Below, one piece after another: positions 18,417-52,763 of a DNA stretch of 64,000 nucleotides. Within the stretch, counting starts at the first letter, position 1. The number at the start of each line of letters is the position of its first letter. The stretch comes from Chiloscyllium plagiosum (taxonomy: Eukaryota): contig NC_057711.1 in the NCBI RefSeq assembly GCF_004010195.1, positions 3,481,931 through 3,545,930 of the forward strand, read 5' to 3'. The notes under the pieces are model-generated. The model made no database searches. It worked only from the letters and a program-made list of their open reading frames with translations, and was not told the origin of the DNA. Made by a program: the position numbers and the translations under genes.

Positions 18417-18797
18417 CTATCACTTCCAGAGCTGTCCCCAACAGCGTTTCGAAACTGCCAATATTGAATTCCACACAACACCGATAGAAACCATCATCCT
18501 CCCGGCTCAGTCCCTCCATCATTATTGAGACATCTTTGTTGCTGAGGTTCCCCACGAATCTGAATCGATTCCCACCGTCCCGCTGTCTCACATTCTCACA
18601 CAGCTCACCCTGGGAATGGTCTGGACCAGGATATGTACACTTAAAGATAACACCTGTGTCAGATTTAATCCATATGACGGAGCCGGTGAGTGTGAGGTGA
18701 GTGTCAGGATGGGTGAAGCTGCAGGGTAAGACAGCGGAGCCTCCTTCCTCAGCCCTCACGTCGTTCGCGACCGTCATTGACCAACCATTACCAGAAT
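18417..18797 (-). CDS. Ig V-set exon A3, Siglec-15-like (F-strand Arg replaced by Cys)
   Basis: Acceptor (ct)n-cccctcacaacag and donor ATAG|gtgag; 381 bp, phase 1-1, open. Encodes YRCCVEF...GTALEVI. Confidence 0.92.
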
Positions 18798-18919
18798 CTG
18801 TTGTGAGGGGAGAGAGAGAGAGAGAGAGGATATGAACAGCACAGACACCAAACAGTGAGGTAAAACACTGAATCCGTTATATAGTGCGCAAAGATAACAT
18901 TTCTGACTTATAAACTGAC

Positions 18920-18983
18920 CTGAGACAGTGTGGAATGAGTTACAGCGTGGAGCACACAGAGGACGTCAGTACTTTGTAAACAT
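18920..18983 (-). pseudogene. Disrupted leader-like exon upstream of A3 (in-frame TGA)
   Basis: ATG TTT ACA AAG TAC TGA ... ACT GTC TCA G|gtcagt; 64 nt with a phase-1 donor about 120 bp above the A3 acceptor. Confidence 0.45.
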
Positions 18984-19269
18984 CCTGAAGTTAGACTGTG
19001 GGTGTTTGTTGCTGTTGGTTGAAGAGAGGGTTTGGTGCCTGAGAGTTAACTGAACTCTCCATTGTTCCAGGAGATCCAGAGTTATCTGAAGACCAGGGCT
19101 CAGGGCCCTCCCTGCAGAACCTTTTCTATTTCCCATCACTTTCTACTCTATTACCGAGCTAGCCTTCAGCAATCTGGCTCAATCATCAGTCACAGCAGAG
19201 GGATGGCTGATTCGGTGAATGTACCGCAGAGGGAAATACACAAAGAAATAAAGATGAAGAGCTGAAGTA

Positions 19270-19475
19270 AATTTGTCATAGTCCCAGAGAACTACAGTCT
19301 TATTAGAAAGGTATGATCGGTGGTGATTTAAACTGTGGGTACCTATGCCTCAGATAAGGGGCAAGGTTGAGAAGATGGGATCTTCATGGTCACCTCAGAC
19401 AGTATGGGAATTAAACCTGCATTGTTGGCATCACTCCACATCGCAAACTAACTGTCCAGCCAACTGAGCTAACTG
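19270..19475 (-). mobile_element. tRNA-derived SINE (non-HE1)
   Basis: Minus strand tagctcagttggctgg (A box) ... ggtttaattccc (B box). Paralogs at ~44710-44912, ~37420-37615 and ~12860-13410. Confidence 0.7.
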
Positions 19476-20199
19476 GCACAAAAAGATAAACCAAGTAGTT
19501 CTAGAAGGCAGTGTGAATATCAAGTGAGGGCATAAGGGAGTGTGGCATGGTTAGATGTAATTTACTTGTGAATAAGGCAGATGAGCTGAGGGTGTAGATT
19601 GATGAGTGGGGAAATGACATTGTTGTTATCACAGAGGCATGGTTGACGGTGGGGCAAGATGGGCCCTATAGTGTTCAGGCTCATAGAACCATCAGATGAG
19701 ATATGTAAGGATAGTGGGGAATGTAAAAGAGGAGGGGTGTCGCAACATTGATTAAGTAATCGATTGCTGTAATAAAACGGATGATATCTCAGAATGTTCC
19801 TCAAATGATGCCACATGATACAATTTAAAAACAAATCCCCCATCACCACCTTCTTCATCATATGATCAAGTTAATTTTGTGTCCAATTGGCATTCTTTCC
19901 CTGAGTCCCATGTAATGTCAGACATGATGTGGAGGAGCCAGTGTTGCACTGGGGTGGACAAAGTTAAAATTCACACAACACCAGGTTATAGTCCAACATG
20001 TGGAGCCTAGGAGAGTCATAGAGGTGGGAAATCCGAAAACACTTTAAAATGTACTTGGATCACCAATTGAAACTTCATAGCATTCAAGGTATGGCCCAAA
20101 TGCTGGAAAGTGGGACGAGTGTAGATTTAGAGTGTTTTTTTTTGGTGTACACTCAATGGGTTCAAGGGCCTCTCCTGTTCTGTTTGATTCAATGATTCT

Positions 20200-21550
20200 C
20201 TGATTGAGTGGAGATAAGAAACAAAAAGGGCAAGAAAATGTTGGTGGGAGTGGTCCAAAAGCTCCATTACACGAACTATATGGTGGGACAGGGAATAATT
20301 CAGGAGATAGTAAGAGCACGTAACAAAAATAGTACATTAATCATATACATTGGGACAATCAGATTAGCAAAGGAAGCCATAAGGAAGAATTCATAGAACA
20401 TATTCAAGGCAGTTTCTGAGAACAATATACTGTGAATCCAACAAGGGATCAGGCTATTTCAGATCTGGTGATGTATCATGATTCAGATTTAATCAACGAT
20501 GCCGGAGTGAAAGATACCCTGGAAACAGTGAACATAATATGTGAGAATTTAGTGTTCAGTATGAGAGGGAGAAATTTGGGTTGGAAGTAACTGTATTTAG
20601 CTGATAGAAGGATAATTACAAAGAGATGAGGGCAGAACTGGCTGGAGTGGATTGCAGAAGCAGTTTTGCAGTAAAGACAGAAAAGGAAAGATGACAGACT
20701 TTTAAGGTAATAGATTATGGCTCACATCAAAGTTGCAGTCCAGTGAGGAGAAGCATTCTCCGAAATGGATAAACCAATCAGGTTTAATGAGGGAAGTTAA
20801 GTATATCATCAGGTCGAAACAAGAAACATACAATATAACAAATATTCATGATAAACAAGAGAATTGGGAAAGTTTTAACAACCAACAGCAGATGACTGAA
20901 ATGTAATAAAGAAAGAAAAAAGTCACTTTGAGGGTAAATTTGCAAGTAATATCAAAATGGAGAGCAACAGCTTCTTTAAATCAATAAAAAAAGAAGAAAG
21001 TATCTAAAGTAAATGTAGGTGTCTCAGAGGATACGGTTGTGAAATAACAATGGGAAACAAAGAAATAGCAGAGCAGTTTTCGTAGTGGAAGACACTGAGA
21101 GCATCCCAACATTCATAAATATTGAAAAGGTCACAAAATAAGTACAATAACTATCATCAGAGAAAAATGCTAGGGAAACTATTGGAGGGAAAAAGAACAA
21201 GTTGGCTCCTGGACCTGGTGTGATGCATTCTGGGATATTAAAGGAAATGATGATAGAAACAATAGATAGATGCATGGGAACTTCAGATTGTGGAAAGTCC
21301 CGGAGAATTGGAAATTTGCCAACGTAACACCTGTGTTTTTAAAGTAAATGAGGTAAAAGGAAAATAGGTAACCACAGACCAGGAAGTTAATGTCTAGTAT
21401 TGTGAAAATAGTGGAGTCTATCATTAATGATATAATCATTCAGAATGCAGAAATGGATAATATGATCATGCAGAGTCAGCATGTCTTCATGAAAGGGAAA
21501 TTATGCCTGACATATTTATTTGCATTCTTTTGCGTTTGTTACAAGCTAAA
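20200..21550 (+). mobile_element. Old CR1 LINE fragment whose 3' end resumes at ~25240-25445
   Basis: Degenerate EN/RT motifs such as tggaaatttgccaacgtaacacc and agtcagcatgtcttcatgaaaggg. Confidence 0.75.
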
Positions 21551-21554
21551 GAGA

Positions 21555-23165
21555 TAGACATAGAACATATAACATAGAACAGTACAGGCCCTTCAGCCCT
21601 TGATGTTGTGCCAAACCTTTATCCTACTCTAAGGTCAAAGTAAGCTACATACCCTTCATTCTACTATCATCCATGTGCCTATCCAAGACTCATTTAAATG
21701 TCTCTAATGTATCTGACTCTACTACCACTGCTGGCAGTGCATTCTACGCACTCACCACTCACTTGTAAAGAACCTATCTCTGATATCTCCCTTAAACCTT
21801 CATCCAATTACCTGAAAATTATGCTCCTTTGTGATAGTCATTTCTACCCTGAGAAAACATCTCTGACTAGTCACTCTATCTATGCCTCTTTTCAGCTTGT
21901 ACACTTTTATCAAGTTGCTTCTCACTCTTCTTTGTTCCAATGAGAAAAGCCCGAGCTCCTTCAACCTTTCTTCTTAAGATGTGTCATCCAGTCCAGGCAG
22001 CATTCTGGTAAGTTTCCTCTGCAACTTGTCTAAAGTTTCGACATCCTTCCTACAGTGAGGTGACCAGAACTGAACACAATATTCCAAGTGTGGTCTAATC
22101 AAGGCTTGATCGAGCTGCAGCATAACCTCATGGCTCTTAAACTCACATAGACCCCAAGATCCCTCAATTCCTCCACACTGCCAAGAATCCCACCTTTAAC
22201 CCTGTATTCTGCATTCAAATTTGACCTTCCAAAATGAATCACTTCACACTTTTCCAGGTTGAGCTCCACCTGTCACCTACCAGCTAAGATCTGCATCTTG
22301 TCAATATCCCGTTGCAACCTACAACAGCGCTTCACACTATCCACAACTCCACCAACCTTTGTGTCATTGGCAAACTTACTAACCCACCCTTCCACTTCCT
22401 CATCCAGGTCTTTTATAAAAATCACAAACAGCAGAGGTCCCAGAACAGATCTCTGTGGAACACCACTGGTCACCAAGCTCCAGGCTGAATACCTTCCATC
22501 TACTACCACCCTCTGTCTTTTAATTTGCAGCCAACTCTGGATCTAGACAGTCAGATTTCCCTGTATCCCATTCTTCCTTACTTACTGAATGAGCCTACAT
22601 TATTAATCGCCTTGCTAAAATTCATGTACACCACATCCACACACATCCTTAATCAATACATTTTGGCACATTTTCAAAGAATCCAACAAGGCTTGTGAGG
22701 CATGACCTGCCCCTCACTATGTTATGCTGACTATCTCCAATCAAATGATGGTTGTCCAAATCATTATAAATCCTATCTCTCAGAATCCTTTCCAATAATT
22801 TGCACACCACAGAAGTAAGACTGCCTGGTCCATAATTCCCAGGATTATCCCTATTCCCTTTCTTGAACATTTGCCACCCTCCAATCACCTGGCACTACTC
22901 CAGTGGACAGTGAGTTCACAAAGATCATGACCAAAGGTGCAGCAATCTCTTCCCCCACTTCTTGTATTATTAACCTTGGGTATATCCCATCTGGCCCAGG
23001 AGACTTACCTATCCTTATGTTTTTCAAAATTTTCAGCACATCCTCCTTCTTAACATCAACCTGTCGGAACATATCAGCCTGTTTTATGCTGTCCTCACAA
23101 ATGACAAGGACCCTCCTACTAGTGAAGCAAAGTATTCATTAAGGACATCCCCAATCTCCTGAGTG
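21555..23165 (-). mobile_element. CR1 LINE fragment
   Basis: [28 protein letters not shown] and KSPGPDGIYPR; catagaa 3' tail repeats. Confidence 0.93.
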
Positions 23166-23299
23166 GTGACTTTTTGAAACATAAAAGATTCTTTGGGTGC
23201 TTGACAGGGTGGATGCAGAACGGTTGCAGATTTAAAATGAGAGGTATGTCTACTTCTGGGCAGTATATACCACTGGGCAAGAGTTACAGCTGGGGGAAA

Positions 23300-25237
23300 G
23301 GCAATTATGGTGTGATTCGGCAAGATTTAGGAAGCATAGGATAGGGAAGGAAACTGCAGGGGATGGGCACATTAGAAATGTGGAGCTTATTCAAGGAAAA
23401 GCTCCTGAGGGTCCTAGATAAGTATGTACCTGTCAGGCAGGGAGGAAGCTGTAGAGCGTGGGAGCTGTGGTTTATGAAGGAAGTGGAATCTCTCGTCAAG
23501 AGGAAGAAGAAGGCTTATGGTAAGATGAGATGTGAAGGCTCAGTTAGGTTGAGGGTTACAAGGTAGCCAGGAAAGACCTAAAGAGAGAGCTCAGAAGAGC
23601 AAGGAGGAAACATGAGAAGTTGTTGGCGGATAGGATCAGGGTAAACCCTCAGGCTTTCTATAGGTATTTAAGGAAGAAAAGAATGACGAGAGTAAGATTA
23701 GGGCCAATCAAGGATAGTAGTGGGAAGTTGTGAAGGGAGTCAGAGGAGATAGGGGAAACACTTAATGAATATTTTTGACAGTATTCACTATAGAAAACAA
23801 CAATGTTATCGAGGAGAATACCAAGATACAGGCTACTAGACCAGGTGGGATTGAGGTTCACAAGGAAGAGGTATTAGAAATCTTGCAGACTGTGAAAATA
23901 AATAAGTCCCCTGGGCCGGATGGGATTTATCCTAGGATCCTCTGGGAAGCCAGGAAGGAGATTGCCGAGCCTTTGGCATTGATCTTTAAATCATCATTGT
24001 CTAGAGGAATAGTGCCAGAAGACTGGAGGATAGCAAATATGGTTCTCCTGTTCAAGAAGGGGAGTAGAGACAACTCTGGTAATTATAGACCAGTGAGCCT
24101 TACTTCAGTTGTTGGTAAAGTGTTGGAAAAGGTTATAAGAGATAGGGTTTATAATCATCTAGAAAAGAATAATTTGATTAGGGATAGTCAGCACGGTTTT
24201 GTGAAGGGTAGGTCGTGCCTCACAAACCTTATTGAGTTCTTTGAGAAGGTGACCAAACAGGTAGATGAGAGTAAACCAGTTGATATGGTGTATATGGATT
24301 TCAGCAAGGCATTCGATAAGGTTCCCCACAGTAGGCTATTGTACAAAATACAGAGGAATGGGATTGTGGAAGATATAGCAGTTTGGATCAGTAATTGGTT
24401 TGCTGAAAGAAGACCGAGGGTGGTGGTTGATGGGAAATGTTCATCCTGGTGTCCAGTTACCAGTGGTGTACCGCAAGGGTCGGTGTGGCTGTTTGTCATT
24501 TTTATAAACGACCGACCTGGATGAGGACGTAGGTAGATGAGCAGAGAGATCTCGGTGTCCAGGTACACAGATCCTTGAAAGTTGCCACCCAGGTTGACAG
24601 GGTTGTTAAGAAGGCATACAGTGTTTTAGCTTTTATTAATAGAGGGATCGAGTTCCGGAACCATGAGGTTATGCTACAGCTGTACAAAACTCTGGTGCAG
24701 CTGCACTTGGAGTATTGTGCACAGTTCTGGTCACCGCATTATAAGAAGTATGTGGAAGCTTTGGAAAGGGTGCAGAGGAGATTTACTAGGATGTTGCCTG
24801 GTATGGAGGGGAGGTCTTACGAGGAAAGGCTGTGGGACTTGAGGCTGTTTTCATTGGAGAGAAGAAGGTTGAGAGCTGACTTAATAGAGACATATAAGAT
24901 AATCAGAGGGTTGGATAGGGTGGACAGGGAGAGCTTTTTTCCAAGTATGGTGACAGGGAGCACGAGGGTCATAGCTTTAAATTGAGGGGTGATAGATATA
25001 GAACAGATGTCAGAGGTAGTTTCTTTACTCAGAGAGTAGTAAGGGTATGGAATGCTTTGCCTGCAACGGTAGTAGATTCGCCAACATTAAGTACATTTAA
25101 GTTGTCATTAGACAAGCATATTGATGTACATGGAATAGTGTAGGTTAGATGGGCTTCAGATTGGTATGACAGGTCGGCGCAACATCGAGTGCCGAAAGGC
25201 CTGTACTGCGCTGTAATGTTCTATGTTCTATGTTCTA
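23300..25237 (+). mobile_element. Young CR1 LINE fragment with internal deletion
   Basis: 249-aa RT ORF ([38 protein letters not shown]); (ttctatg)n tail. Confidence 0.95.
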
Positions 25238-25934
25238 CCCTAAGAAGGTAATGAAGCTCTTTTGCCACTGAGAACAGTTAATATTGTTGCTTTAAGTATC
25301 GTAAAAACAGAGATAGACTAATTTTTATTCATTTTGGGAATCAGGGGTTATGAAGAAAAGTCAGGAAAGTGGAATTGGGGTTTATCATCTCAGTCGTGAT
25401 CTCATTGAAGTATAGAACAGACTCAGTGGGCTGAATGGCCTTCTAGAATAGTCTCGCTGCCTCAGTTCTCAACACCTCCATTTCTGAAGCCTGTGAAGCC
25501 CATTTGCTTTTTCAATCACACTCTCAACATGTCACACCGCCAAATTCCTTTTTCAAGGTACATCCTTTAAACTGCCTGAATGATTCTACATTGCCTACGG
25601 GCAGCATGGATCTTGGTGCATGAATCCATGGTGATGGCTTCTCTGTTTCTTATCCCAAAACACTAAAACCAGTCTGAATATGGGAAATGACTGAGTCTGT
25701 GAGAGGCTGTGAGAGGTTTCATACATGGTGATGGTTTGGTCTGTAAATCACAGCCTCATCTCCTTCTATCTCACCCTCTCTGTTTCTCTCTTTGTCTCTC
25801 TCCTTCTCACTGCCTCCTCTCAGACCAAATGAAAGAGCCCAGGACAGGGAGCCAAATCAAGCTCTTCTGGACCAGTGGAGTCTCTCACCATTGAGCTGTG
25901 AGGGCATAGACAACATCCAAACAGTGTTCCTCAC

Positions 25935-26318
25935 CTTCAATTTCCAGCTTTGTTGGAGACTGTGTTTGAAAACTGCCAATATTGAGCTCCACACGACACA
26001 GATAGGAACCAGCAGCCTCCTGGCTCAGTCCCTCCATCATTACTGAGACATCTTTGTTGCTGAGGTTCCCCACGAATCTGAATCGATTCCCACCGTCCCG
26101 CTGTATCACATTCTCACACAGCTCACCCTGGGAATGGTCTGGACCAGAATATGTACAGTTAAAGATAACACCTGTGTCAGATTTAATCCATATGATGGAG
26201 CCGGTGAGTGTGAGGTGAGTGTCAGGGTGGGTGAAGCTGCAGGGTAAGACAGCAGAGCCTCCTTCCTCAGCCCTCACTCCATCCATGACTGTCATTGACC
26301 AACCATCATCAGAAACCT
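25935..26318 (-). CDS. Ig V-set exon A2, Siglec-15-like, essential Arg retained (YLCRVEL)
   Basis: Acceptor (ct)n-cccccctcacag and donor GAAG|gtgag; 384 bp, phase 1-1, open. Encodes WSMTV...AVLPCSFTHP...FNC...ELC...RFRFVGN...YLCRVEL...TKLEIE. Confidence 0.92.
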
Positions 26319-26423
26319 CTGTGAGGGGGGAGAGAGAGAGAGAGAGAGAGAGAGACAAAGGATGTTAACACATCACCAGCACAGTTATCAGTGTGTGGAA
26401 CTGAAACTTTGAGACTCTGATCT

Positions 26424-26524
26424 CTGAAGAAGGGCTCCTGAAGAAGGGCTCATGCCCGAAACGTCGATTCTCCTGCTCCTTGGATGCTGCCTGACCTGCT
26501 GCGCTTTTCCAGCAACACATTTTC
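26424..26524 (+). mobile_element. Short Penelope pLTR fragment with 12-bp TSD
   Basis: TSD agactctgatct at 26412-26423 and 26525-26536. Confidence 0.8.
26438..26465 (+). ncRNA. Minimal hammerhead ribozyme motif (PLE-associated)
   Basis: CUGAAGA-A-GGGC-UCAU-GCCC-GAAACGUC. Confidence 0.6.
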
Positions 26525-27470
26525 AGACTCTGATCTGAGTCTGTTATTTCATGGAAACAGGGATAGCAGTTGTAATGAGAGGCAGTGACCTAATGGTAAT
26601 GTTAATTCATGAGCAATCCAAGACTGGGTTCAGATGTTTCAGTTTCTAACATGGCCACTGCTGGAATTTCAATTCAGTTATTAATCAGTTATTAAACATC
26701 AGAAATTAAACAGGAGCATAATGGTATCCATGAAATTATTATCAATGTTGGAAAAAATCTATCTAGTGCACTGAAGTTCTTCAGAGAAGGGAAATGCTGT
26801 CCTTACGTGTCTCACCCACAGCAACAGATTTAACTCTAAAATGACCTCAGAAATGGCCACGGGAGACACTCAGTTGCACCAAACCAGGACAAAACATAAA
26901 ATGAATGGCACGACTGAATTGTGTTACAAATCATACAACACCAGGTTATAAACAAACAGGCTTGTTTGGAAATACTACCAACAAACCTGTTTGACTATAA
27001 CCCGTTGTTGTGTAATTTTTAGCTTCGTTCACTCTAGTCCAACACTGGCACCTCCATATCATGACTGAACAGGGAATACTGTGTCAATAGCCATGTTCTA
27101 TTGCTTCACATATCAGCAGGAACTGTATAAATGTTCAAGAATTCCAACAAGATCACCAAAACCTGAAATGCCTGGGAGTTCCTGTTTTGGGACAGAAGGG
27201 AACCACACCAGCAATCTTCAGTAAAAATAATTCCATCAATTAATTTATAGTAATATCTGCACCACTCCCTCCCCACACACAGACGCACAGAATCAATCAC
27301 AATTAAGACAGAGAAAAGATAAACAGTTTATATTTCTACCATGAGTGAAAAAAAGAATACAGACAGGCTAAACAAAATTCTAAAAATCAAATTCAAAGTT
27401 TGTGCGAAGATTTATAGCTCGGGTGCTCGTTGTTGTGGTTCTGTTCGCCGAGCTGGAAGTTTTTGTTGCA

Positions 27471-27504
27471 AACGTTTCGTCCCCTGGCTAGGCGACATCA
27501 TCAG
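27471..27504 (-). ncRNA. Minimal hammerhead ribozyme motif (PLE-associated)
   Basis: Minus strand CUGAUGA-U-GUCGCCU-AGCC-AGGGGAC-GAAACGUU. Confidence 0.55.
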
Positions 27505-28147
27505 TGCTTGGGAGCCTCCAGCGAAGCGCTTCTTTGATGTTTCCTCCGGTGTTTATAGTGGCCTGTCCCTGCAGCTTCCGGTTGTCAGTTTCAGCTGTCC
27601 ACTGTAGTGGTTGGTATATTGGGTCCAGGTCGATGTGTTTGTTGATGGAGTTTGTGGATAAATGCCATGCCTCTAGGAATTCCCTGGCTGTTCTCTGTCT
27701 GGCTTGCCCTATGATAGTAGTGTTGTCCCAGTCGAATTCATGTTGCTTGTTGTCAGCGTGTGTGGCTACTAAGGATAGCTGGTCGTGTCATTTCGTGTTC
27801 CATTTATATCGTTTATTGATTTATCTCACTGGGTTTCAACCTCATTAAATGATCACCAGCTAAGTACTTTGCCCATCATTGCTGGACTACCATCAATCCC
27901 TTTAATGAAACCTGCAAGTGTTGCCTTCCCTACAATGGTGTTGTAAAGTATCATACTTCATCATTTAACTTTTTGTTAAAGCAGATGTACAAATGTACCC
28001 TGATAACACGATGGATCCAGATTTCCTGCTGTAATTATTACTGTGGAAGGATTGAAGCAAGGCCATATGGGCAGCTGGGATTTTGACCAAATTGCTGACA
28101 GATTGATGACAATGACATTTCTGGTGGAAACGTCAGCATAATGGTAC

Positions 28148-28205
28148 CTGAGGTAATGGGGTATGTGCAGTGGACAAGAACGCACATTGCTGAACACAAG
28201 AGCAT
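28148..28205 (-). CDS. Candidate signal-peptide (leader) exon MLLCSAMCVLVHCTYPITS
   Basis: ATG at 28205, 19 codons plus 1 nt, then TCAG|gtacca (phase 1). Joins in frame to exon A2 1.8 kb downstream. The donor is non-optimal. Confidence 0.5.
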
Positions 28206-29061
28206 TTCTGGATAAGCATTATTTAACACTAATTAAGCTGGGATTTGTTCCTTGTTCAAATCTTGTCCCCACCGCCCTCACACACAAAGCTTTCTCCCAG
28301 ACTGCAGAACAGGAGGGAGCCCTCAGCCACTTAACTGGCAAGCGTCACACCTTCAGTCAGATTGAAGAAGGCTGGGTGCGGAAATAACAGAGGAAGGAGG
28401 GTGGGGGAATTGGGTGGAGATGGAACCCAGAGAGACAACAGCTGTTGAGCAGATAGGTCAAGCCAGACAGAGAACAGCCAGGGAATTCCTAGAGTCATGG
28501 CATTCATCCACAAACTCCATCAACAAACACATCGACCTGGACCCAATATACCAACCACTACAGCGGACAGCTGAAACTGACAACCGGAAGCGGCAGGGAC
28601 AGACCACTATAAACACCGGAGGAAACATCAAAGAAGCGCTTCGCAGAAGGCTTCCAAGCACTGATATTGTCGCCTAGCCAGGGGATGAAACGTTTGCAAC
28701 AAAAACTTCCAGCTCGGCGAACAGAACCACAACAAAAATCAAATTCCTGAACACAAGATGGAAAGATTTTTCTCTTTCACAGTCCCTGTTGTTTTTTGCA
28801 GTGATGAGATGCTGTTCTCTATACAATGATTGTCATCCTTCCAATTAAATGTCTATTATGTGAACTTAGATCTTTGCTCATCGTTCTTTTCAGCTTTCTT
28901 GGTTTTTTCATCTTTATCTCCATGGTGACAGGTGGGTGGGAGAAATGGCTGCTTTTTGTCTGTAGGCTCCAGATGATTTCCACTTTCAGGGGCTCCAGGA
29001 ACTTATAGCTTTGTAACAGTAGTAGTTCAATCAGAGGGCAGTGCCAGGAGGAATTTTGTTG

Positions 29062-30735: not shown

Positions 30736-33700
30736 AAGTCTTCTGGCATCAGTTCAAACATGACCAAAGAAATCTTCTGATTACTACCTCCTGCCATAAT
30801 GCTCCCACTCCCACCCTTACAATCAAGTTGGCTACCACTTGGAGGTCAACACGGACACAGAATGTACTGTGCATGGGGGATGTTAATATCCAACAGCAAG
30901 AGTGAAATGGCAGCTTCATTACTGACTGAGCTAGTGGAGGCCGAAAAGGCGTAGTTCTTGAACTTGGTCTGTCGCAGGTGGTGACGGAACCAATAAGAGA
31001 GAAAAGCTTGGCCTTGTCCTCAGCAGTCTATCTTTTCATGATAGGGCTGGGAGGACTGGCCACTATACAGTCCTTCTGGAGACAAAGTCCCTTCTTTGAA
31101 GGACATTGAGGTATATCCCCACCATGTGTGTGGCACTAGCCCTGTGTTAAATGGGACAGGCTCTGAATAGATCTAGCAACTCAGAACTCAGTTCCCAGCA
31201 ACACTCTAGGTCAGCAATACAGCCGAATTGAACTCCAACCCAAACTGTAAACTCCAAGCCTGAGTGTTCCCTGACTTAAGCATTACCATTAAGTCAGGTC
31301 ATCAACCCTGGTACAATGAAGAATGCAGGAGCGGATGACGGGAACACCACCAGCTAAAATTAAAATAAGATGTCAGCTATAAAACAGGGATACCTCAATG
31401 CCAGACTGCATAAACAGCAAGTGATAGCCTGGGATAAGTGACCCCACTGTCAGTGGATCAGATATAAGCTCAGCAGACCTGCAACATGCAGTTGTGAATG
31501 GTTGAGGGCAATTAATCAACTTAACAGGGGTATGAGTCTCCACACACATTCCCATCCTCAGTGAGGGGGATCCTAGCTCATTGGTGCAAATGACAGGGCT
31601 GAAGCATTCACACCTAATTTGAACCAGAGTGTTGAGTGATGATCCATCTCACTCTCTTCCAGAGATCCTCAGCATCACAGATAATTCCTTACCAAGACGG
31701 CAAATATGATTCTGTGGATCTGGAGACATGTGTTGCTAGGGTGTGGGACAGAAATCACTGACTTGGAGCTATTCCTCACCCAGCTTCTGACCCAAACTTG
31801 AGGGCTACACTCATTGCCCCTGATGTGACACAGCGAACCCTGTTATTGAAGGCTGGTATACCACCTATGCCTATCCTGTGCTCTACAAGTAGGGCCGGCC
31901 AAGTGAGGAAGGCAGAAACAAAAGCAGAAATTGCTGGAACGACTCAGCAGGTCTGGCAAATCTGTGTTCTGGGTCCAGTGACCCTTCTTCAGAAGAAAAA
32001 TGACTCAAAATGGTAGACTGTGAATAACATGGATATTGCAGCTGCTCCTGATACTCAGGCTTAATTGGAGATTTACTTGGAGATTTCTTACAGTATTTCA
32101 TTTCCATTGTACACGATTTTTATTTTGATTCAGTTTTAGTTCTTTTATGGTCAAAAATGCAAAGAAAAGCAAAAACAAAATAAAAGCACTCAATTTTTTA
32201 TCAAACGGAGTTCTGCAATCATGGATGGTTCGGAGTTTTTATATCTCTATGAAATTATATGCATAGCAGAGACTTTGTTATCATTGCTGAAGTGATTCTT
32301 TTTAAAATCGCAAAGGAGAGGTTTTTTTTTAAAGACAGAGTTGTGTTTATAGAGATTTTGGAGAGGCTTATACGTCGATGATTCTGGCGTGGGAATTTTT
32401 CATGGGAACATTGAAAGCTGCCTGCTGGACCAGTTGAGCAGGAGTCACTTTTGTTATTATTTAAATTCGATTGTTCAGCTCAGTGGTTGATTTTATTGAA
32501 GATTTCTACATTTGATTTTTCTTTAGATTTATATGTTTTATTCATTTTATTTTTTTTTGCATGCTTAATATTAACTCTTTGGCAAAAGAAAGGTAGTCTA
32601 ATTTATATATTAGGAGCTATTATAACCTGCCTCTTTTTGGCTTAATAACATTGAAGGCATACACGCGATAGAGTTAAACAGCGAGTTAGATTTAGAGAAG
32701 CGAATACACAGCATGATCAGTCAGATAGATGGGTGACTATCAGAAAAGGTAAGAAGGTAATTCAGAGGTCTCCTGCTGCAATTCCTCTCTCAAACAGATA
32801 CTCAATTTTGGATACTCTTGAAAGGATAGTCTCTCAGAGGAAAAAAAGATGAGACAGTCAGATCTTGTACACTAAGAATGAATCTTATGTTAGATAGGTT
32901 TGACAAAATTTCGAAGAATAATTATTATGGGGGACTGTCCTGTCAAGGGCACAGACAGACGTGGGATGGACAGGATTTGCAGTTCAATGTTCCAGGTTTC
33001 TGATGCTACAGGAAGGATAGAAAAAGAGGAGGGGCATGGCATTTTTAATTAAGGAAAACATTACTCCTGTTATGAGAGAAGATATTTCTGAAAACTGTCC
33101 TGTGAAAATGCATAGGTTGAAATTAGAAACAAAAATGCAATGATAACTTTGATGGGATTGTATTGCAAGTCCACCAGAAAGGTCAGAAGGAAATTGAGGA
33201 ACAAATATTTTGAGAGATCTCAGGTATTTGTAAGAATAATAGAGTTGTATTGGTAGGTGATTTTAATTTTCCAGACATTGACTGGGACAAGTTTTGAATG
33301 GTGAAGAACTTGTTAAAGAAAATTCTCTTTATCAATATGTAAATATTCCAATAAGAGAAAGAGCAAAACTTGACCTTCTCTTGAGTATAAAGACAGAGCA
33401 AGTGACTAAAGTGATAGTAGGGAAACACTTGGGCCAAAGTGATCATAATTCAATTTGTTTTAATATGGCTATGGAAAAGGGTAAAACTTCTCTAGAAAAT
33501 AAAGTTTTTAATTGGAGTAAGGAACATTTTAATGATGTGAGACAAGATCTTTCAAACTTTGATTGGAGCAAACTATTCACAGGTAAAGGGACATCTGGTA
33601 AGTGGGAGGCTTTCAAATGTGTGATAATGAGAGTTCAGAATCATTATGTTCTTGATCAGCTAAAAGGTGAGATTGGTAGGATTTGAGAACAATGGATAAA

Positions 33701-34258
33701 TTATGATATTGAAGTTCTAGTCAAAAATAAAAAAGAATAATATATTCGATATAAACAACTGGATTCAAATGAATCTCTTGAACAATATAAAGAGTTTAGG
33801 GGCATTCTTAGAGATAACAAAGAGAGGATATGAGATAGCCTTGACAAATAGGGTTAAGGATGATCCAAAGAGTTTATATAATTACATTAAGAGTAAAACA
33901 GCAACTAGAGAGAGAGTAGGACCCCTTATAGATCAAAGAGGTCACCTTTGTGTTGAACCTGAGGAGATGGGAAAGATATTAAATGAGTATTTCATGTCAA
34001 TTTTTACTGTTGAGAAAGGAATGGAGGCTAGGAAACTCAGGGAAATAAATATTGATGTTTTCAAAACAATTCACATTACAGAAGAGGAAGTGCTGGAGGT
34101 TAGAGAAAATGTAAAGATAGATAAACCTCCAGTACCTGACTTAGAATATCCCAGGACTTTGAGGGAAGTAAGGGAGGAAATTGAAGGGCCTCTTGCAGAA
34201 TTATTTGTCTCCTCTACAAATGCGGCTGAAGTGTCCAATAGCTGTAGATGGGCTATTA

Positions 34259-35408
34259 CAGAGTCATAGAGTCATAGAGATGCACAGCATGGAAACAGAC
34301 CCTTCGGTCCAACCCGTCCATGCCGACCAGGTATCCCAACCCAATCTAGTCCCACCTGTCAGCACCTGGCCCATATCCTTCCAAACCCTTCCTATTCATA
34401 TACCCATTCAAATGCCTCTTAAATGTTGCAATTGTACCAGCCTCCACCATATCCTCTGGCAGCTCATTCCATACACATACCACCCTCTGTGTGAAACGTT
34501 GCCCCATAGGTCTCTTTTATATCTTTCCCCTCTCACCTAAACCTTTGTCCTCTAGTTCTGGACTTCCCAACCCCAGGGAAAAGACTTTGCCTATTTACCC
34601 TATCCATGTCCCTCATCATTTTGTAAACCTCTATAAGGTTACCCCTCAGCCCCTGATGCTCCAGGGAAAAAAGCCCCAGCCTGTTCAGCCTCTCCCTATA
34701 GCTCAAATCCTCCAAACCTGGCAACATCCTTGTAAATCTTTTCTGAACCCTTTCAAGTTTCACATCTTTCCAGAATTGCATGCAATATTCCAACAGTGAC
34801 CTAACCAATGTCTTGTACAGCCACAACATGACCTCCCAACTCCTGTACTCAATTCTCTGACCAATAAAGAAAAGCATACCAACACCACCTTCACTATCCT
34901 ATCTACCTGCGACTCCACTTTCAAGGAGCAATGAACCTGCTCTCCAAGGTCTCTTTGTTCAGCAACACTCCCTTGGACCTTACCATTAAGTGTATAAGTC
35001 CTGCTAAGATTTGTTTTCCCAAAATGCAGCACCTCGCATTTATCTGAATTAAACTCCATCTGCCACTTCTCAGCCCATTGGCCCATCTGGTCCAGATCCT
35101 GTTGTAATCTGAGGTAACCCTCTTCGCTGTCCACTACACCTCCAATTTTGGTGTCATCTGCAAACTTACTAACTGTACCTCTTATGCTCACATCCAAATC
35201 ATTTATATAAATGACAAAAAGTAGAGGACCCGGCACCGATCCTTGTGGCACTCCACTAGTCACAGGCCTCCAGTCTGAAAAACAGCCTTCCACCACCACC
35301 TTCTGTCTGCTACCTTTGAGCCAGTTCTGTATCCAAATGCCTGGTTCTCCTTGTATTCCGTGAGATCTAACCTTGCTAACCAGTCTCCCATGGGGAACCT
35401 TGTCGAAC
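34259..35408 (-). mobile_element. Young CR1 3' fragment nested in older CR1
   Basis: [21 protein letters not shown] and SKFADDTKIGG; (agagtcat)n tail. Confidence 0.95.
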
Positions 35409-35576
35409 TTTGTGCCTTTATTTAATAAGGGATGTAAGGAAAAGCCCGGGAATTACAGACCTGTGAGTCGGAATTCAATGGTGGGTAGCTAGGAATGTAA
35501 GGAATGATTTGGGATACTTAGCATTGTTTTGTCTGAGGGAAATTGTGTCTCACAGACATGATTGAGTTTTTAGGTA

Positions 35577-35905
35577 GGGCAGCACGGTGGCGCAGTGGTT
35601 AGCCCTGCTGCCTCACAGCGCCAGGAATCTGGGCTTAATTCCAACCTTGGGCGACCGTCTATGTCGAGTTTGCATGTTCTCCCTGTGTCTGTATGGGTTT
35701 CCTCCCGGTGCTCCATTTTCAACCCACAATCCAAAGTTGTGCAGGTTAGGTGAATTTGCCAAGCTAAATTGCCCATACTGTTATTGGATATGTAGATTAG
35801 GTGCATAAGTCCGGGGTAAATATAGAATAATAGGGGAATGGGTTACTCTTCAGAGGGTCGGTATGGACTTGTTGGGCCAAATGGCCTTTTTCCATACTGT
35901 AGGGA
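35577..35905 (+). mobile_element. HE1/V-SINE
   Basis: gggcagcacggtggcgcagtggttagc head and V domain. Confidence 0.9.
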
Positions 35906-38348
35906 TTTTAAGTTCATAAACAACATAATTGGTGAAGGCAGAGTTGGAAATGTTCTTTATTCGACTTTAGTAAAGTCTTTGACAAGCTTCCGTATGGTAG
36001 ACTAATTAGTAAAGTTAGATTATGTGGGATTCAGGGTGAGCTTGGCAATTGGATACAACATTGGCATAACGGCAGAAGACAGAGAGTGACTGTGGAGTGT
36101 TGATTTTTGGACTGGAAACCCGTGACTGGCAGTGTTCCACAGGGATTGGTGCTGGCTCCACTTTTGTTTGTCATTTATATAAATGAATTAGATGAAAATA
36201 TAGAAAGCATAGTTAGTAATTTGTGGATGACACCAAAATTGCTGGTAAATTGGAAAGTGAAGATGGTGATCTGAGATTACCAAGAGATCTTGATTAATCA
36301 GGTCAATGGTCTGAAGAGTGTCAGGTGGAGATTAATTTGGATAAATGCAAGGTATTGCATTTTGGAAAAACAAATGAAGGCAAGACTTATAAATTTAAAA
36401 GAACAGAGAAAGACCTAAGCTTTCTTTCTTTGACTTTACATCGCTTATAGATAGGGTGATTAAGGTGCTGTTCAGCACGCTTGCCTTCATTACTCAGATT
36501 GCACCATGTTGACGTTGTACTGAACATTGGTGAGGCATCTTCAGGAGTACTGTCCACTTCTGGTTACCCTGTTATTGGAAGGATATTATTAAGCTGGAGA
36601 AGGTTCAGAAGAGATTTATCAGGATTTTGCTGGGAATTGAGTGTTACAGCAAAAAGGAGAGACTGGATAGGCTCGAACATTTTTCACTGGGGGCATAAAA
36701 GGTTCAGAGGTGATCTTATAGAGTTTTATAAAATTATGAGTGGTATAGATAAGATGAATGGTCGATGCCCTTTCTGTAGGGTGGGGCATTTCAAGACTGG
36801 TGGCATATTTTAAGGTAAGAGGAGTAAGATTTAAAAAAGACATGAGGAACAATTTTTTTATATAGACAGTGGCTTGTGTGTGGAATGAAGATCAGGAGCA
36901 AGTGGTGGATATAGGTACAGTTACAATGTTTAAAAGACTTTTGGATAAGTACATGAAGAAGAAATCTTAGAGGGATATGGGCCAAGTGCAGCCAGATGGG
37001 ATTAGTTTAGACTGTGATTATGGTTGGCATGGACTGTTTGGACCAAAGGGTTTGTTTCGATGCAGTATGCCTTTATGACTGTCTGACTCTACAAATGATT
37101 GTTGCTGGGAAAAGGTTGGAATAAATTATGAAGATGAGATGGACAGAGGGGAGAGGAGCAAACCCTCGGTGGAGATGGAGTTCAGGGAGGAAGAAAAACT
37201 GTTGGATAGACAAAGGAATGGTAAAGGTCAGCCTGGGAGAATGAACAGCTGCTGATGGGCACCATTAGTCGCTGAGAATGGATTGTTTGTGATAACAGCC
37301 CATGTCTGATGGGCTGGTGTATGTGGGTTGGGGGGAAGGAGATAGGAGAAGGTGCTTTAGCCTTAAAATTATTGACCTCAATAATGAGTCCAGGAGGCAG
37401 ATTTCATTCTCAAAGTCAAGTCACTATATTCTTAGCAGACCATGGGGCTGCTCTCTCACTAGACAGAGGTAATTGATGGCGATTTAACCTGAGGTCCACC
37501 ATACTTCAGGTGAGGGGAGAAGTTGAGAAGGCAAATCGTTCATGGTAACCTGAATAGTGTGGGAATTGAACCCATGTAGGTTTAACACACCAATTGTTCA
37601 ACCAACTGAGCCAAACTGACCCCTAGTTTTCCTAAAAGGCATGACTGTATCAGATGGGCCTTCTACATATATCAACAACGTGGCCATGAAATTAGCTTAT
37701 TTAAATTCCAGATTTTTAAACATTTCATTCAAATTTCACAAACTTCTGCTGTGCTGGAATTTGAACCCATAGCCCCAGACTTGGGTGTCTGGAGTAATCA
37801 TCCAGTGACAGTAGTAGTATACCACCAAGTCATGTGTGAATGCAGGACTCAGATAGGTCCCACATGGCTGTGATGACTCACATAGTCAAATGGAGACTGA
37901 GAGAATGTACTTGCATTGATGGAACTATTCCTGATGAAAACTTTCATTGTAACCAAGAGGAACACATTCGACTGCTACACCTTCCTAATTGAGGAGATGA
38001 TCTCAATATCAGCACAAATTTGGGTGCTTTGGAGACTGAACTGAATGTTCTGCATGTGGTAAAAGTCTTTCAACACTGATATCAGAATGTATCTAAATGG
38101 ATTAGCACATCAAATTGCTTAAAATATTTTAAAAATCAAATTCAAAACACAAAAGCAAAATATTGCTGATGCTGGAGATTTGGGAAAAAAAACAATCAAA
38201 ATGCTGCCAATACTCAGCACACCAGATAACACCTTGGAGAGAAACAGTGTTAATGCTTAGTTCAATGACCTTTCACCAGAGAATCAAGTCACAAAAAATT
38301 CACAGAATCTGTTCCATTCTCAGATGAAAGAATGTGTGAATGGCTCAC

Positions 38349-38702
38349 CTGGTATGACCTGCATCCGACTCTCTTTCTGGATTAGACATTGAATATCCTC
38401 TTGTAATAATGTGTAATCCACCACACACAGGTAAGTATGATTGTCCTTCACAGTCAACTGGTTTATCTGGATTAAGATGATTCCCTCCTCTGCGTTCCCG
38501 ATGAGCTCGTACCGATTTCCACCATTTACAGTTGTCCAAGTTCCCTGTGATTGGGCTTTAAAAGTAACAATGTGTTGATAGGGCTCCGTCCTCATTAAGG
38601 TAACAGTGGTCAGCTTGAGGAAGTCCATGGTCTCGAAGATACAGGGTAAAGTAACTGAATCTCCCTCTGTCCCACTCACCACTGGGACACTTGCCTGAGC
38701 AG
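38349..38702 (-). CDS. Ig V-set exon B1; core Trp replaced by Leu, possibly defective
   Basis: Acceptor tttgttctttcctcag and donor CCAG|gtgag; 354 bp, phase 1-1, open. Encodes GTEGDSVTLPC...TVTLMRTEPY...RYELIGN...INQLTVKDNHTYLC. Paralog of 14172-14525. Confidence 0.87.
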
Positions 38703-39247
38703 CTGAGGAAAGAACAAACATCAGAATTAATGAGATCAGAAGTCCTTGATTCAATTTGTTCCATTCCTTTCAACTTCACAATAAAATGAAGAATTAAAAA
38801 CTCCATTCATATCTCTAACAGGTCTCTCCCAGACATTCCCCTACAAGAGTCACCTCGATCAAAATGTCTCTCTACCTCTTAATTTAAGAATCCTAATCAT
38901 AAGATACTTAGAGATTAGGAAATTCATTGTACCTTCCCGAATTCATTCATGCAGAACCCTCCATCCATATTCTTTACATGAGATCAAGGATTTTACAGCC
39001 TCCCCCCCCCTCACTCTGTACAGCAAATACATTCAAAGTATTGACCACACTCTGTGTGAAGGAGAACCCCCTGGTGTCATTCCTAATGTAACCATTCATC
39101 AGTTCTAACCTGTGACCTTTGAAATGAGCACAGGTTAATTTAAACTCAGAGTCCAGATTAAAATTTTCTACACTGAGTAAAATATTTTTTGATACAGGTG
39201 GAGTGGTAATTCATGTGGCTCTTCACTGCATGAACTTTAAAGATGAG

Positions 39248-39910
39248 GTTAAACCAAATCATCCGCCGACATTTCCGCCACCTCCAAACAGACCCCACCA
39301 CCAGGGATATATTTCCCTCCCCACCCCTCTCCACCTTCCGCAAAGACCGTTCCCTCCGTGACTACCTGGTCAGGTCCACGCCCCCCTACGACCCACCCTC
39401 CCATCCTGGCACTTTTCCCGGCCATAGCAGGAACTGTAAAACCTGTGCCCACACCTCCTCCCTCACCTCCATCCAAGGCCCCAAAGGAGCTTTCCACATC
39501 CATCAAAGTTTTACCTGCACATCCACTCATATCATTTATTGTATCCGTTGCTCCCAATGCGGTCTCCTCTACATTGGGGAGACTGGGCACCNNNNNNNNN
39601 NNNNNNNNNNNNNNNNNNNNNNNNNNNNNNNNNNNNNNNNNNNNNNNNNNNNNNNNNNNNNNNNNNNNNNNNNNNNNNNNNNNNNNNNNNNNNNNNNNNN
39701 NNNNNNNNNNNNNNNNNNNNNNNNNNNNNNNNNNNNNNNNNNNNNNNNNNNNNNNNNNNNNNNNNNNNNNNNNNNNNNNNNAGCTTATCTCTCCACGCTT
39801 CAGGCTCTCTGCCTTTATTCCTGATGAAGGGCTTTTGCCCGAAACGTCGATTTTGCCTGTCTTCGGATGCTGCCTGAATTGCTGTGCTCTTCCAGCACCA
39901 CTGATCCAGA
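39248..39910 (+). mobile_element. Penelope-like element 3' part (GIY-YIG endonuclease), 15-bp TSD
   Basis: CKTC...IIYCIRCSQCGLLYIGETG. TSD aactttaaagatgag at 39233-39247 and 39911-39925. The empty paralogous site is at ~15052-15066. Confidence 0.92.
39821..39848 (+). ncRNA. Minimal hammerhead ribozyme motif (PLE-associated)
   Basis: CUGAUGA-A-GGGC-UUUU-GCCC-GAAACGUC. Confidence 0.65.
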
Positions 39911-41798
39911 AACTTTAAAGATGAGCTGAGAGACAAACTGATTCCTCATTCCCTCCTTTAAACAGGAATCCCCCACTTTCAAACCAGTTCGTCTTTTGCT
40001 CACAAGAGCAAATACCCTCTCAGAATCTGTCTTGTCAAGTCTCCTCAGAACCTTCTTTTTTTCAGTAATTTCTCCTCTAATATTTTTTCATTCAGTCATA
40101 GATGTCACTGACTCAGATGATGTGCATTTATTGTGCATCTTCGTTGTCCAGGAGAAGCTGCTTTCTTGAACTGCTGCAGCCCTGAGGTGTACGGGTTACC
40201 CACAGTAATTTTAGGGATGGAGCTCCAGGGTTTTGACCCAGCAACGCTGAACAAATGGCAATATGGTAAGAATGGAACCTGCCTACTCTGCATTGAGTGA
40301 GGCAGCAAAAACAATGAGAGCAGACACAGCCGTGTCAATCCTGTAAAATCCTCCTCATTAACATCTGGAAGCTAGTGCAAAAAGTGGAAGAGCTGCCTCA
40401 CAGACTGGTCAACTAACAGCCTCACATAGGCAAACTCATGGAATCATAACTCACAATGTCTCAGGCACCACCGTCGCCACTGCTGGATATTTCCTGTTCC
40501 ACTGGCAGGACAGACCCAGCAGAGATTGAGGCGTTGTGATATATAGTTGGGAGAAAGATGTCCTGTGAGTCTCCAACTTGAAATCCCCAACTGAAAGACA
40601 ACATTGTAATCCCAATGAACCACAATCTATGTAAACCCACCACTCCACCATTCCCATCAGGCTGGGACATTAATAAAGGGTCCATGTGAGTATGCTGTGA
40701 CCAACACCAGGCAAACCTAAAAATATGAGGTCAACATGCTGAAACTACAACCCCTAGGACTACTTGGTTGTCTAACAGCAGAAACAGCACACAATAGAGC
40801 CACCCCATAGCGAATGGATCAGATGGCTCTGCAGGCCTGCTGCATACTTTCCTGAGTGGTGGTGGACAGTTGCAGTACCAGCTGGTTCAGTACTGTTACA
40901 ACACTGGGATCTCCCCAACAATGGGGAAAATTACCCGGGTATGTCCTGTACACACAAAGCAAGGTGAGTCTGACCAGGCCAATTACCACCCCATCAGTCT
41001 ACTCTTGATCATCAAGAAAGTGATGGAAAGTGAGTGACTGCCCTTAACATTAAGGCCACATTTGAGCAGGTGTAGTGTCAATGAGTCTGAGTAAAACTAA
41101 AGCCAACAGGAACCTGGGGAGAAACCTCCATTGGTTTGAGTCATACCTGACACATGGGAAGGTGGTTGTGATTAGTCACTTCAGCTCCAGGACATCTCAG
41201 CAGAAGTTCCTCAGGGTAGTGCCCCGGTTCCCAACTCTCTTCAGCTGCTTCATCAATGACCTTTCCTCCACCATGAGGTCAGAAGTGGGGATGAATGTTC
41301 ACTGATCAACATGGGATATAGGAGAACATCACCACCTACAAGCTTTCTTCCAAGACACTCACCATCCTGATTTGGAAATATTTCATCATTCCTTAAGTGT
41401 CACTGAGACAAAATCCTGGAACTCCTTTGCCAAGCACATCATGAATATCCCTGCAGCTGAGGGAATGCAGCAGTTCAAGAAGGCAGCTCAACATTCCATT
41501 ATCCAGGGCAATTAGGGATGGTCAAAAAGGCTGACCAAGCATGTGTCACCCACATCTGCTTAAAACATTACAAGATAAATATAGTTCCAAGTCAAGATGG
41601 TGTGCATCTGCTGCTGTTTTTCATGGTGGTCATAGACGTCACAGTTTGGTAGGTACTGGTGGAGGAAATGTTGGTGTCTTCCTGCAGTGTATTTTGTAAT
41701 TATTTTTATTCCCAAAATGGTGTTAGGGTGGGATTTCCAGGATTTGAGTCAGTGACAGTGACAGAGCAGTGATATATTTTTTCTGCTCTCTTCTCAGA

Positions 41799-42810
41799 TG
41801 TGATGATATTGCTCCTTTAACAAGGTATGTTGTCCTTGGCTTTTTTTTTCCAGAGAGGTCATAAAAGGCACAGACTGCAAAAAGGCTAAGTTTGAAGGAT
41901 TTTATGGCCAGTTTGATTATAGCTAACAGATACTCCCTCAGGGAAAACATTTTCACATTAAAAAAAACACTTGTACAATGAAAAGCGGGTGGTCAGTTCT
42001 CCCAGCTCAGCTTCTTTCTGGTTTGACTTTTTTTGGATGGGCGGGGGGAGTCTTGCTATTCATTTAAAGCAATAAGGCAGTTTTGAAGCTGATCCTAGAA
42101 ATAGTTACATGATAGAGGGTGTTCCATGTTACCATCTCTCTCTCTCCGATAACTCTCCTATAAGACTCTCCTGTTAGACTGGCACAGTGGCTTGGTGGTT
42201 AGCATTGCTGCCTCACAGTTCCAGGACCCAGGTTTGATTCCAAACTTGAGCAACTGTGTGGAGTTTACACATCCTCCCCGTATATGTATGGGTTTCCTCC
42301 CACAATCCAAAGATGTTCAGGTTATGGTAAACTGACCATGCTAAATTACCAGTAGTGTACAGGGATATGTGCATTAGTCAGGGGTAAATGTAGAGTAATA
42401 GGATAGGGGTTTGGGTGGGTTATTCTTTGGAGGGTAAGTGTGGACTTGCTGGGCTGAATGGCCTGTTTCCACACTGTAGGGATTCTATGATGATGACCCT
42501 GTTTTTGACCATACCTTTTGTGCCAAGGGGTATTTATGGGGATTGTTGCAAGTTTTTGAAACAGTATCATTAAGTTGGGATAATCTGTTGGGTTTTCAGA
42601 TAGGTTAAGTTATTTGGTATTCTGTTCTCTTTTGCTGGTGTTTCATTCGGTAATTTGTAAATATATTCTGTTTTGTTTAAAACTAAGTGGTTTGGCTATC
42701 TGCACCTCTCCTGGAATATCCAGTCTATACCTGCTTAAAACAACTAGCAAAGTTAGTGTCTGAGGTACTTTCTTGAAATGTTCTGAGGGAGTCTGGCCTG
42801 GTCCTTAACA
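41799..42810. mobile_element. Solo LTR (TG...CA, 4-bp TSD caga) with nested HE1 SINE at ~42178-42495
   Basis: caga|tgtgatg...ccttaaca|caga. Absent from the paralogous site at ~16915-16925. Confidence 0.8.
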
Positions 42811-43663
42811 CAGACAGGTGGGGAGTATTGTGTCATTCTCCTGACTTGTCAAATAGGCTTTGGAGTCAGGAGGTCTGTTAATTCACAGGATTCCTAGCTT
42901 GTTTCCTGCTCTTGTAACCACAGTTTCATTTGCACTCCTGGGTTCACTTCTTGTCTACAACTGCTTGAGACATTGAGGGGACATATAAGAGTCAACCATA
43001 TCGCTGTAGGTATGGAGTCACATGTAGGTCAGACAAGGTAAGGATAGCAGATTTCCCTCCCTAAAGGACATGAATCCCCAGGTGGTTTTTATTTTATGGT
43101 GATGGATACATGGTCATTATGAGATTAGTTTTTTGTGCTTGATTTTTTTCAATTCAAATTTCAAAATCGGCTGGAATTGGAATCATTTGCAAGGGAATTA
43201 ACGTCTGGAGAAGATGTCTTCCCTCATTTTCTCCTCAGACCAAGAGAGAGGGGGATAGCAACAGTGAGGCTCTCAGCCAATGTGAGCTGAAGATTCCTTC
43301 ACCCTCAGACATGTTCATCCAATGAGGGCTCAGGAGATAAAAGTTTCTCTTTTCCTCACTTAATGCTGATAGAGCAGGGCTGTCACTGGTGGGAGTGTTG
43401 GAGCTTGGGTCTCGATGATATTTTCTCTGTTCTATATCCCAGAATGTCGAAGCTAGTTTAAATAGAGCAAATGAGTGAGTGTGTGAGAGACTGCAGGAAG
43501 TTTTAGAAATGGTGATGGAATGGTCTATACATTCCAGCCTATCTGACTATCTCCTGCCTCAGACCAACTGAAGAGCCCAGGACAAGGAACCAACCCGGAG
43601 CTCCCAGAACAAGTCCCTATTCAGTTATCTGGGCAGTGACACCATCTGAACATTGTTCCTCAC

Positions 43664-44047
43664 CTGTCACTTCCAAATATGTTCCCGTCGATGTTTGGAA
43701 ACTGCCAATAATGAGTTCCACATGACACTGAAATAAACCAGCATCCTTCTGGCTCAGTCCCTCCATCATTATTGAGGCATCTTTGTTGCTGAGGTTCCCC
43801 ACGAATCTGAATCGATTCCCACCGTCCCGCTGTCTCACATTCTCACACAGCTCACCCTGGGAATGGTCTGGACCGGGATATGTACAGTTAAAGATAACAC
43901 CTATGCCAGATTTAATCCATATGATGGAGCCGGTGAGTGGGAGATTAGTGTCAGGGTGAGTGAAGCTGCAGGGTAAGACAGCGGAGCCTCCTTCCTCAGC
44001 CCTCACGTCGTTTGCGACTGTTATTGACCAACCATGAGCAGAATCCG
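43664..44047 (-). CDS. Ig V-set exon A1, Siglec-15-like (F-strand Arg replaced by His)
   Basis: Acceptor tctcccctcacag and donor ACAG|gtgag; 384 bp, phase 1-1, open. Encodes WSITVANDVRAEEGGSAVLPCSFTHP...IIW...FNC...ELC...RFRFVGN...FQCHVEL...GTYLEVT, matching the Siglec-15 V-domain motif order from memory. Confidence 0.9.
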
Positions 44048-52733: not shown

Positions 52734-52763
52734 TGCGACCCCGCACCGAGACTGAGAGGAACA
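52734..52763 (-). CDS. Candidate 30-nt micro-exon
   Basis: Strong acceptor tgtttgtctttctgcag and donor GCA|gtaagt. The phase-0 reading CSSQSRCGVA joins in frame to 52544. Confidence 0.3.

Follow-up and report, generated by a model that had tools for sequence, protein, structure and literature searches.

The stretch of Chiloscyllium plagiosum DNA analysed here (64,000 nucleotides; RefSeq assembly GCF_004010195.1, contig NC_057711.1, positions 3,481,931 to 3,545,930), which we call the window, carries on its minus strand a predicted receptor gene built from V domains resembling that of Siglec-15. A sequence-only reading of the window had described three such domains, A1, A2 and A3, as paralogs among which the essential arginine of Siglecs had been switched to cysteine or histidine. 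Searching the window by tblastn with the leaders and tails of relatives, and then by blastn for extra copies, gave a single gene model rather than three (Table 1): a predicted joining of window exons into a 704-residue open frame with the order leader-A1(His130)-B1-A2(Arg376)-A3(Cys503)-B3-transmembrane segment (TM)-tail. All nine exons are open, all internal introns of the model are GT-AG and all ectodomain exons are phase 1. A1, A2 and A3 share a single leader and a single TM exon, and are likely to be spliced into one transcript as domains of one gene.

On the minus strand the codon immediately 3' of that for the F-strand cysteine reads CGT in A2, TGT in A3 and CAT in A1, as had been claimed; a CpG transition turns CGT into either TGT or CAT. 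Both B domains of the window have valine at this position, and B domains elsewhere in the family have leucine, glutamine or histidine. A profile built from 14 A exons had Siglec-15 as its top match over the whole domain (E 5e-16), placing the codon at Siglec-15 R143, and the C-R-V-E of A2 aligned on the C-R-V-E of Siglec-15, its best match among solved structures. Using the residue numbering and site roles given in PMC10264397, we found counterparts in the A domain for W44, C64, C95, C104, C142, R143 and Y154, the last as phenylalanine. The tryptophan at W44 and the phenylalanine at Y154, aromatics of the A and G strands, are present in A1, A2 and A3 alike, as are all four cysteines of the C64-C142 and C95-C104 disulfide pattern. 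Across 68 A domains the W44-equivalent tryptophan occurs in 63, C95 in 67, C104 in 66 and the phenylalanine in 55. The structure-based alignment that had been proposed as a check pointed the same way: an AlphaFold model of A2 (predicted local distance difference test score, pLDDT, 84) fitted human Siglec-15 (PDB 7ZOZ) best of 997 chains, with Z 16.4 and a root-mean-square deviation of 1.9 over 114 aligned residues at 35% identity. Foldseek placed sialoadhesin, CD33 and NKp30 on top, 7ZOZ not being among the matches listed, and a second aligner ranked 7ZOZ first. Because profile and structural alignments agree, the position is correctly identified as that of R143.

Table 1. Exons of the gene model and essential-arginine codons (positions within the window)
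Feature	Position	Strand	Remarks
Leader (signal peptide) exon	52734..52797	(-)	phase-1 donor; only one in window
Exon A1	43664..44047	(-)	N-terminal Siglec-15-like V domain; His130 at essential-Arg position
A1 codon CAT (His)	43722..43724	(-)	read from sequence
Exon B1	38349..38702	(-)	second-type V domain; extra G-strand Cys; without canonical C-strand Trp
Exon A2	25935..26318	(-)	third V domain; Arg376; W44 and Y154 (as Phe) equivalents kept
A2 codon CGT (Arg)	25993..25995	(-)	read from sequence
Exon A3	18417..18797	(-)	fourth V domain; Cys503; duplicate of A1-B1 cassette
A3 codon TGT (Cys)	18475..18477	(-)	read from sequence
Exon B3	14172..14525	(-)	fifth V domain; extra G-strand Cys
Transmembrane exon	8547..8654	(-)	helix without charged residue
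Cytoplasmic exon 1	4880..4919	(-)
Cytoplasmic exon 2	3699..3744	(-)	runs to a stop read through in paralogs; tail ~32 residues, no Tyr
Further tail exon of relatives	765..785	(-)	matches end of relative P0007; downstream of stop here

Whether this arginine marks a lectin site is a separate matter. The family might bind no sialic acid at all, the arginine after the F-strand cysteine being an inherited feature of V-set domains, as TIM-3 likewise has Cys-Arg there; cloned zebrafish Siglec-15 showed no strong binding to the glycans tested (PMC7226832), and A2 has a shorter C-C' loop and no evident loop tyrosine matching Siglec-15 Y87. We regard this as unlikely, since W44, R143, the Y154 aromatic and both disulfides are kept jointly, and since the arginine is retained, despite its CpG codon, in 21 of 22 family members that bear an immunoreceptor tyrosine-based inhibitory motif (ITIM). 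A2 carries a predicted sialic-acid site with putative binding. Among the window A domains only A2 has the essential F-strand arginine that characterizes a Siglec V-set domain. The N-terminal domain, A1, has His130; no C2-set domain follows the V-set domain, the B domains being Pfam V-set and the 704-residue model lacking a C2 exon; and the tail without tyrosine and the uncharged TM offer neither an ITIM nor a lysine for DAP10/12. Nor does the gene have the V-C2-TM(Lys) architecture of a Siglec-15 orthologue. With no N-terminal arginine, no C2 domain and no signal motif it is not a Siglec by strict criteria; it is made up of Siglec-15-like domains, and A2 may work like one.

The order of the exons bears on how such a site would be displayed. 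A2 had been taken to be membrane-distal, but because one leader exon lies upstream of A1 and the window has one TM exon, A1 is distal in the only complete model and A2 is internal, the third of five V domains. Between A1 and B3 neither tblastn nor blastn of the window turned up a further leader, TM or B exon, and the same searches gave neither a TM nor a tail exon in the B1-A2 interval. The zebra-shark protein P0004 has the same order as the model, leader-A(His)-B-A(Arg)-B, as has the epaulette-shark protein P0006 over its A(Arg)-A(Cys)-B-TM part, and A2-type domains stand after a B' (cassette-type B) domain in both P0004 and P0007. These absences and relatives make it improbable that A2 has a separate transcript in which it is the membrane-distal lectin, with A1 and A3 as separate paralogs that each lost binding. 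That arrangement could draw on the phase-1 ectodomain exons, which would allow leader-to-A2 skipping in frame, on an assembly gap of 644 N between B1 and A2, flanked by long interspersed nuclear element sequence, and on P0006, a partial model with its own early stop, which begins in A2. Reads and contigs of four runs compared with 13900-26400 were swamped by repeats; among the matches listed there was no exon-exon joint of the window gene, and neither codon in the interval was covered.

The two arginine-less A domains appear to have a common history. The A3-B3 block (13285-19916) repeats the A1-B1 block (37503-45356) at about 80% identity, introns included, and in a tree built without the essential codon A1-B1, A3-B3, P0006, the A-B' of a neighbouring gene and the first cassette of P0004 form one clade (support 99/98). 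These five A'-B' cassettes carry histidine, cysteine, cysteine, phenylalanine and histidine, and none carries arginine. A3-B3 is 91% identical to its epaulette orthologue, with the same cysteine. The sequence-only reading had glycan binding lost independently twice, and codon parsimony fits this: a hand count, which assumes CAT and TGT in two species seen only as proteins, needs four base changes for two separate transitions of CGT and five for a single histidine origin. Both losses fall inside one arginine-less clade, however, where alternative branchings are not rejected by approximately unbiased tests (p 0.20 and 0.15) and no duplication order is favoured. Two transitions are the most parsimonious, but since no cassette member bears arginine a single relaxation is the simpler functional account; there were probably two mutations, preceded by a single release of the cassette from constraint. 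In an A-only tree a whale-shark domain that has the arginine, and tryptophan for the F-strand cysteine, joins the cassette group.

We asked how unusual such a loss is. The survey of this codon that had been proposed was run across species: of 61 distinct A domains, 45 have arginine at the position (Arg103 in A-domain numbering), with histidine in 10, cysteine in three and tyrosine, glycine and phenylalanine in one each. The non-arginine residues are thus histidine or cysteine in 13 of 16, beyond chance in kind, and a 68-domain tree, whose bootstrap had not fully settled, requires at least eight changes between arginine and other residues. In the shark's own genome 16 of 23 extracted A exons were counted (L011 and L026-L031, broken or incomplete, were dropped, and the fragment L032 was not extracted); these open-frame exons read CGT in 10, CAT in three, TGT in two and TTT in one. 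The C and the G of the essential codon have changed three times each in these 16 exons, and seven silent CpG positions 1, 1, 1, 1, 3, 4 and 3 times, so that the essential codon is lost at about the silent CpG background, without excess. The D-strand structural Arg73, also in a CpG codon, is CGA in all 16 own-genome exons and arginine in all 61 distinct domains, and the arginine codon two upstream of the essential one has decayed more, with CGG in 5 of 16. The letters of the codons, together with this silent-like rate, point to CpG deamination at a relaxed site; we infer a position neither structurally fixed nor changing unusually fast. Two A exons on unplaced contigs, L012 and L022, are sisters (99/98) with CGT and TGT, a difference due either to recent duplication or to polymorphism between Arg and Cys.

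Selection might instead have actively removed the arginine along with residues of the C-C'/F-G face, through pathogen escape, avoidance of self-activation or a new ligand. Identity among the window A exons is 92-94% over framework codons 1-98 and 71-75% over codons 99-122, a zebra-shark domain has the histidine too and an epaulette-shark domain the cysteine, and the first A domain keeps arginine in 21 of 22 ITIM proteins against two of seven with a TM lysine. We nonetheless find positive selection doubtful as the cause: dN/dS (the ratio of nonsynonymous to synonymous divergence) on the face is 1.0 rather than above 1, the rate of change at the codon does not exceed that of silent CpGs, and the cassette clade alone holds three different replacements. 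The contrast between signalling classes has Fisher p 0.001, with rows that are not independent, and the four independent pairs on supported branches give a non-significant sign test (p 0.25-1); the association is a lead, not a result.

The rest of the locus raises the possibility of a duplicate in general decay, with the loss of arginine as one part of it. B1 lacks its core tryptophan; the tail stops early, with later tail exons, but no terminal ITIM, persisting downstream; and both neighbouring genes are broken. A neighbouring gene about 110 kb past the right end of the window has a leader exon followed by A(Phe) and B', then a gap in the assembly, then B and TM. At 62192-63003 (-) lie the last tail exons of an upstream family gene, with an ITIM-like motif, whose A exon beyond the window is frameshifted. 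Against this stand the nine open exons with canonical splice sites and the 91% identity of A3-B3 to an orthologue with the same cysteine, and we consider general decay a poor prospect. B1 (38349-38702) also has an altered E strand and may be a degenerate spacer domain. The third, G-strand cysteine of B1 and B3 is typical of the B' cassette type; with Cys503 these make three unpaired cysteines, which could form dimers. A single-sequence fold of P0006, aimed at pairing of the free cysteines of A3 and B3, reached pLDDT 39.

We therefore favour, with moderate confidence, a five-V, probably non-signalling family member in which A2 alone keeps the predicted site and A1 and A3 lost the arginine by CpG decay. 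Under this explanation an A'-B' cassette would have duplicated to give A1-B1 and A3-B3, selection on the arginine would have relaxed within the cassette, and deamination of CGT would then have produced histidine in A1 and cysteine in A3. The product would be a type I surface receptor without a signal of its own, a rod of five V domains in which any sialic-acid binding would be by A2, mid-rod, where it might work in cis or be partly hidden; A1 and A3 would have another ligand or none. The early end of the tail, its lack of tyrosine and the later tail exons left downstream suggest that it serves as a decoy or in adhesion alongside relatives that bear an ITIM.

Several observations weigh against this explanation. 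The splice order is a prediction from genomic sequence, the exon phases would tolerate skipping to A2, and P0006 and P0007 start inside A2 and B', respectively, so that neither gives the full 5' order. T-cell receptor V domains score Z 15.3 against the A2 model, only about 1 below Siglec-15. Pairwise dN/dS of about 1.0 in the F-G segment against 0.63 elsewhere fits relaxation but also mixed positive selection. Arginine is still the majority state, in 45 of 61 A domains and 48 of 52 other Siglec-15-like domains, so the site is not free everywhere. Unplaced contigs were counted as separate genes and some may be alleles, gene conversion can distort the trees, and the order of codon changes comes from counts over living sequences and hand parsimony. 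Lastly, in a 48-domain tree the A domains, shark V-C2, shark V-V-C2 and bony-vertebrate Siglec-15 meet at a fork with no supported branching order.

The window gene belongs to a larger family. A2 has 35 matches in its own genome, of which 25 reach at least 61% identity, and the 46 relatives returned by a protein search come without exception from sharks, rays and skates. The commonest layout among them is leader-A-B-(A-B)-TM with an ITIM-like tail; some have a TM lysine, in a P-L-G-x-K pattern common to bird and fish Siglec-15-like proteins. The 46 automatic database models, variously named 'Siglec-15', 'Siglec-12', 'pIgR-like', 'JAM-like' and 'uncharacterized', represent the same family; P0004 and P0006 come closest in architecture to the window gene, and none of the 46 has its full five-domain order. 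Among the next-best profile matches are Siglec-15 of tetrapods and, from lungfish and newt, relatives with several V domains. Tandem Siglec-15-like V domains also occur in bony vertebrates, in P0051 and P0067 (lungfish) and P0070 (newt), P0051 comprising seven matched stretches. With 97/88 support, the 48-domain tree joins the B domain to the second domain of V-V-C2 proteins from sharks and chimaeras, which suggests that the A-B receptors descend from V-V-C2 receptors by loss of the C2 domain.

The same scaffold also carries a separate V-C2 gene, which has the arginine, here and in all four database proteins, without the second disulfide and without a TM lysine, and the features of Siglec-15 appear to be split among several shark lineages. 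This gene (L035, scaffold C2, ~12.73 Mb) adjoins two Siglec-15-like V exons (L033/L034, ~12.77 Mb) near more A-B genes. A CD33/MAG-type V exon cluster on scaffold C47 (L036-L038), with Phe-Arg in place of Cys-Arg, is separate and served as outgroup. Of SLC14A1 and ATP5F1A, conserved neighbours of Siglec-15 on the human map, the shark counterparts, urea transporter and ATP synthase alpha, lie 21 Mb apart on scaffold C1, and the A-B family is on scaffold C2; no A-like exon was found within 200 kb beside SLC14A, and EPG5 was not located in this synteny check.

A broader history can be proposed tentatively, and we would not lean on it: in sharks and rays the ancestor of Siglec-15, a single conserved gene in mammals, may have given rise to a hitherto undescribed tandem-V paired-receptor family in which ITIM members keep the arginine to sense self and activating or tail-less members repeatedly shed it by CpG switching, the window gene being a signal-less decoy with one internal sialic-acid site between arginine-less cassettes. 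The presence of a Siglec-15-like domain in an expanded shark-and-ray family would date the evolution of paired receptors of Siglec type, and with it the recurrent loss of their essential arginine, to as early as cartilaginous fish, on a line distinct from that of the CD33-related Siglecs. The natural Arg, His, Cys and Phe variants on a 92-94% identical framework also offer a clean set for the question of sialic-acid binding by an internal V domain. The three codons alone are of modest weight because the switch is known in primates and is an expected fate of a CGT codon; the family context, with inhibitory, activating and signal-less members sharing a Siglec-15-like domain, is worth more, and we rate it of moderate interest. 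No paper on the shark-and-ray A-B family was found in the full-text literature searched, most subscription journals lying outside its scope.

The modular domain immune-type receptors (MDIR) of skates offer one parallel: they are multi-Ig elasmobranch receptors with ITIM, charged-TM and motif-less members, whose domains are of CD300/pIgR-like I- or C2-set type. Primate SIGLEC12 and SIGLEC5/14, which provide another, are CD33-related Siglecs with C2 domains. Siglecs come up a single time, in a general statement, in the available text of the whale-shark genome paper (PMC8455134), and fish Siglec15 keeps both the arginine and the TM lysine (PMC7226832). The V domain of human Siglec-15 (PDB 7ZOZ; PMC10264397) shares W44, C64-C142, C95-C104, R143 and an aromatic at Y154 with the window domains, but Siglec-15 is V-C2-TM(Lys), whereas the window gene has five V domains, no C2, TM lysine or tyrosine motif, and an N-terminal domain without the arginine. 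In the paired Siglec-11/16 receptors (PMC5701461) inhibitory and activating members have very similar ligand domains, as in the shark and ray family. The window gene, unlike these, has neither an inhibitory nor an activating feature. Gene conversion is documented for Siglec-11/16 (PMC5701461) and possible in the shark and ray family, where the pairwise proportion of synonymous differences (pS) is 0.11 in the framework and 0.28 on the face. The primate precedents that the sequence-only reading had invoked are sound: arginine is replaced by cysteine in human SIGLEC12 and by histidine or tyrosine, polymorphically, in SIGLEC5/14 of apes (PMC7379906, PMC7876704), the histidine being polymorphic in chimpanzee and gorilla (PMC7379906). 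The residue and the replacements are the same as here, and Siglec-12, like the window gene, has more than one V-set domain (PMC7379906, PMC7876704). Arg-to-Cys and Arg-to-His switching is thus known from primates; unlike in primate Siglecs, the changes here are spread over the domains of one gene and recur within a Siglec-15-like family of sharks and rays.

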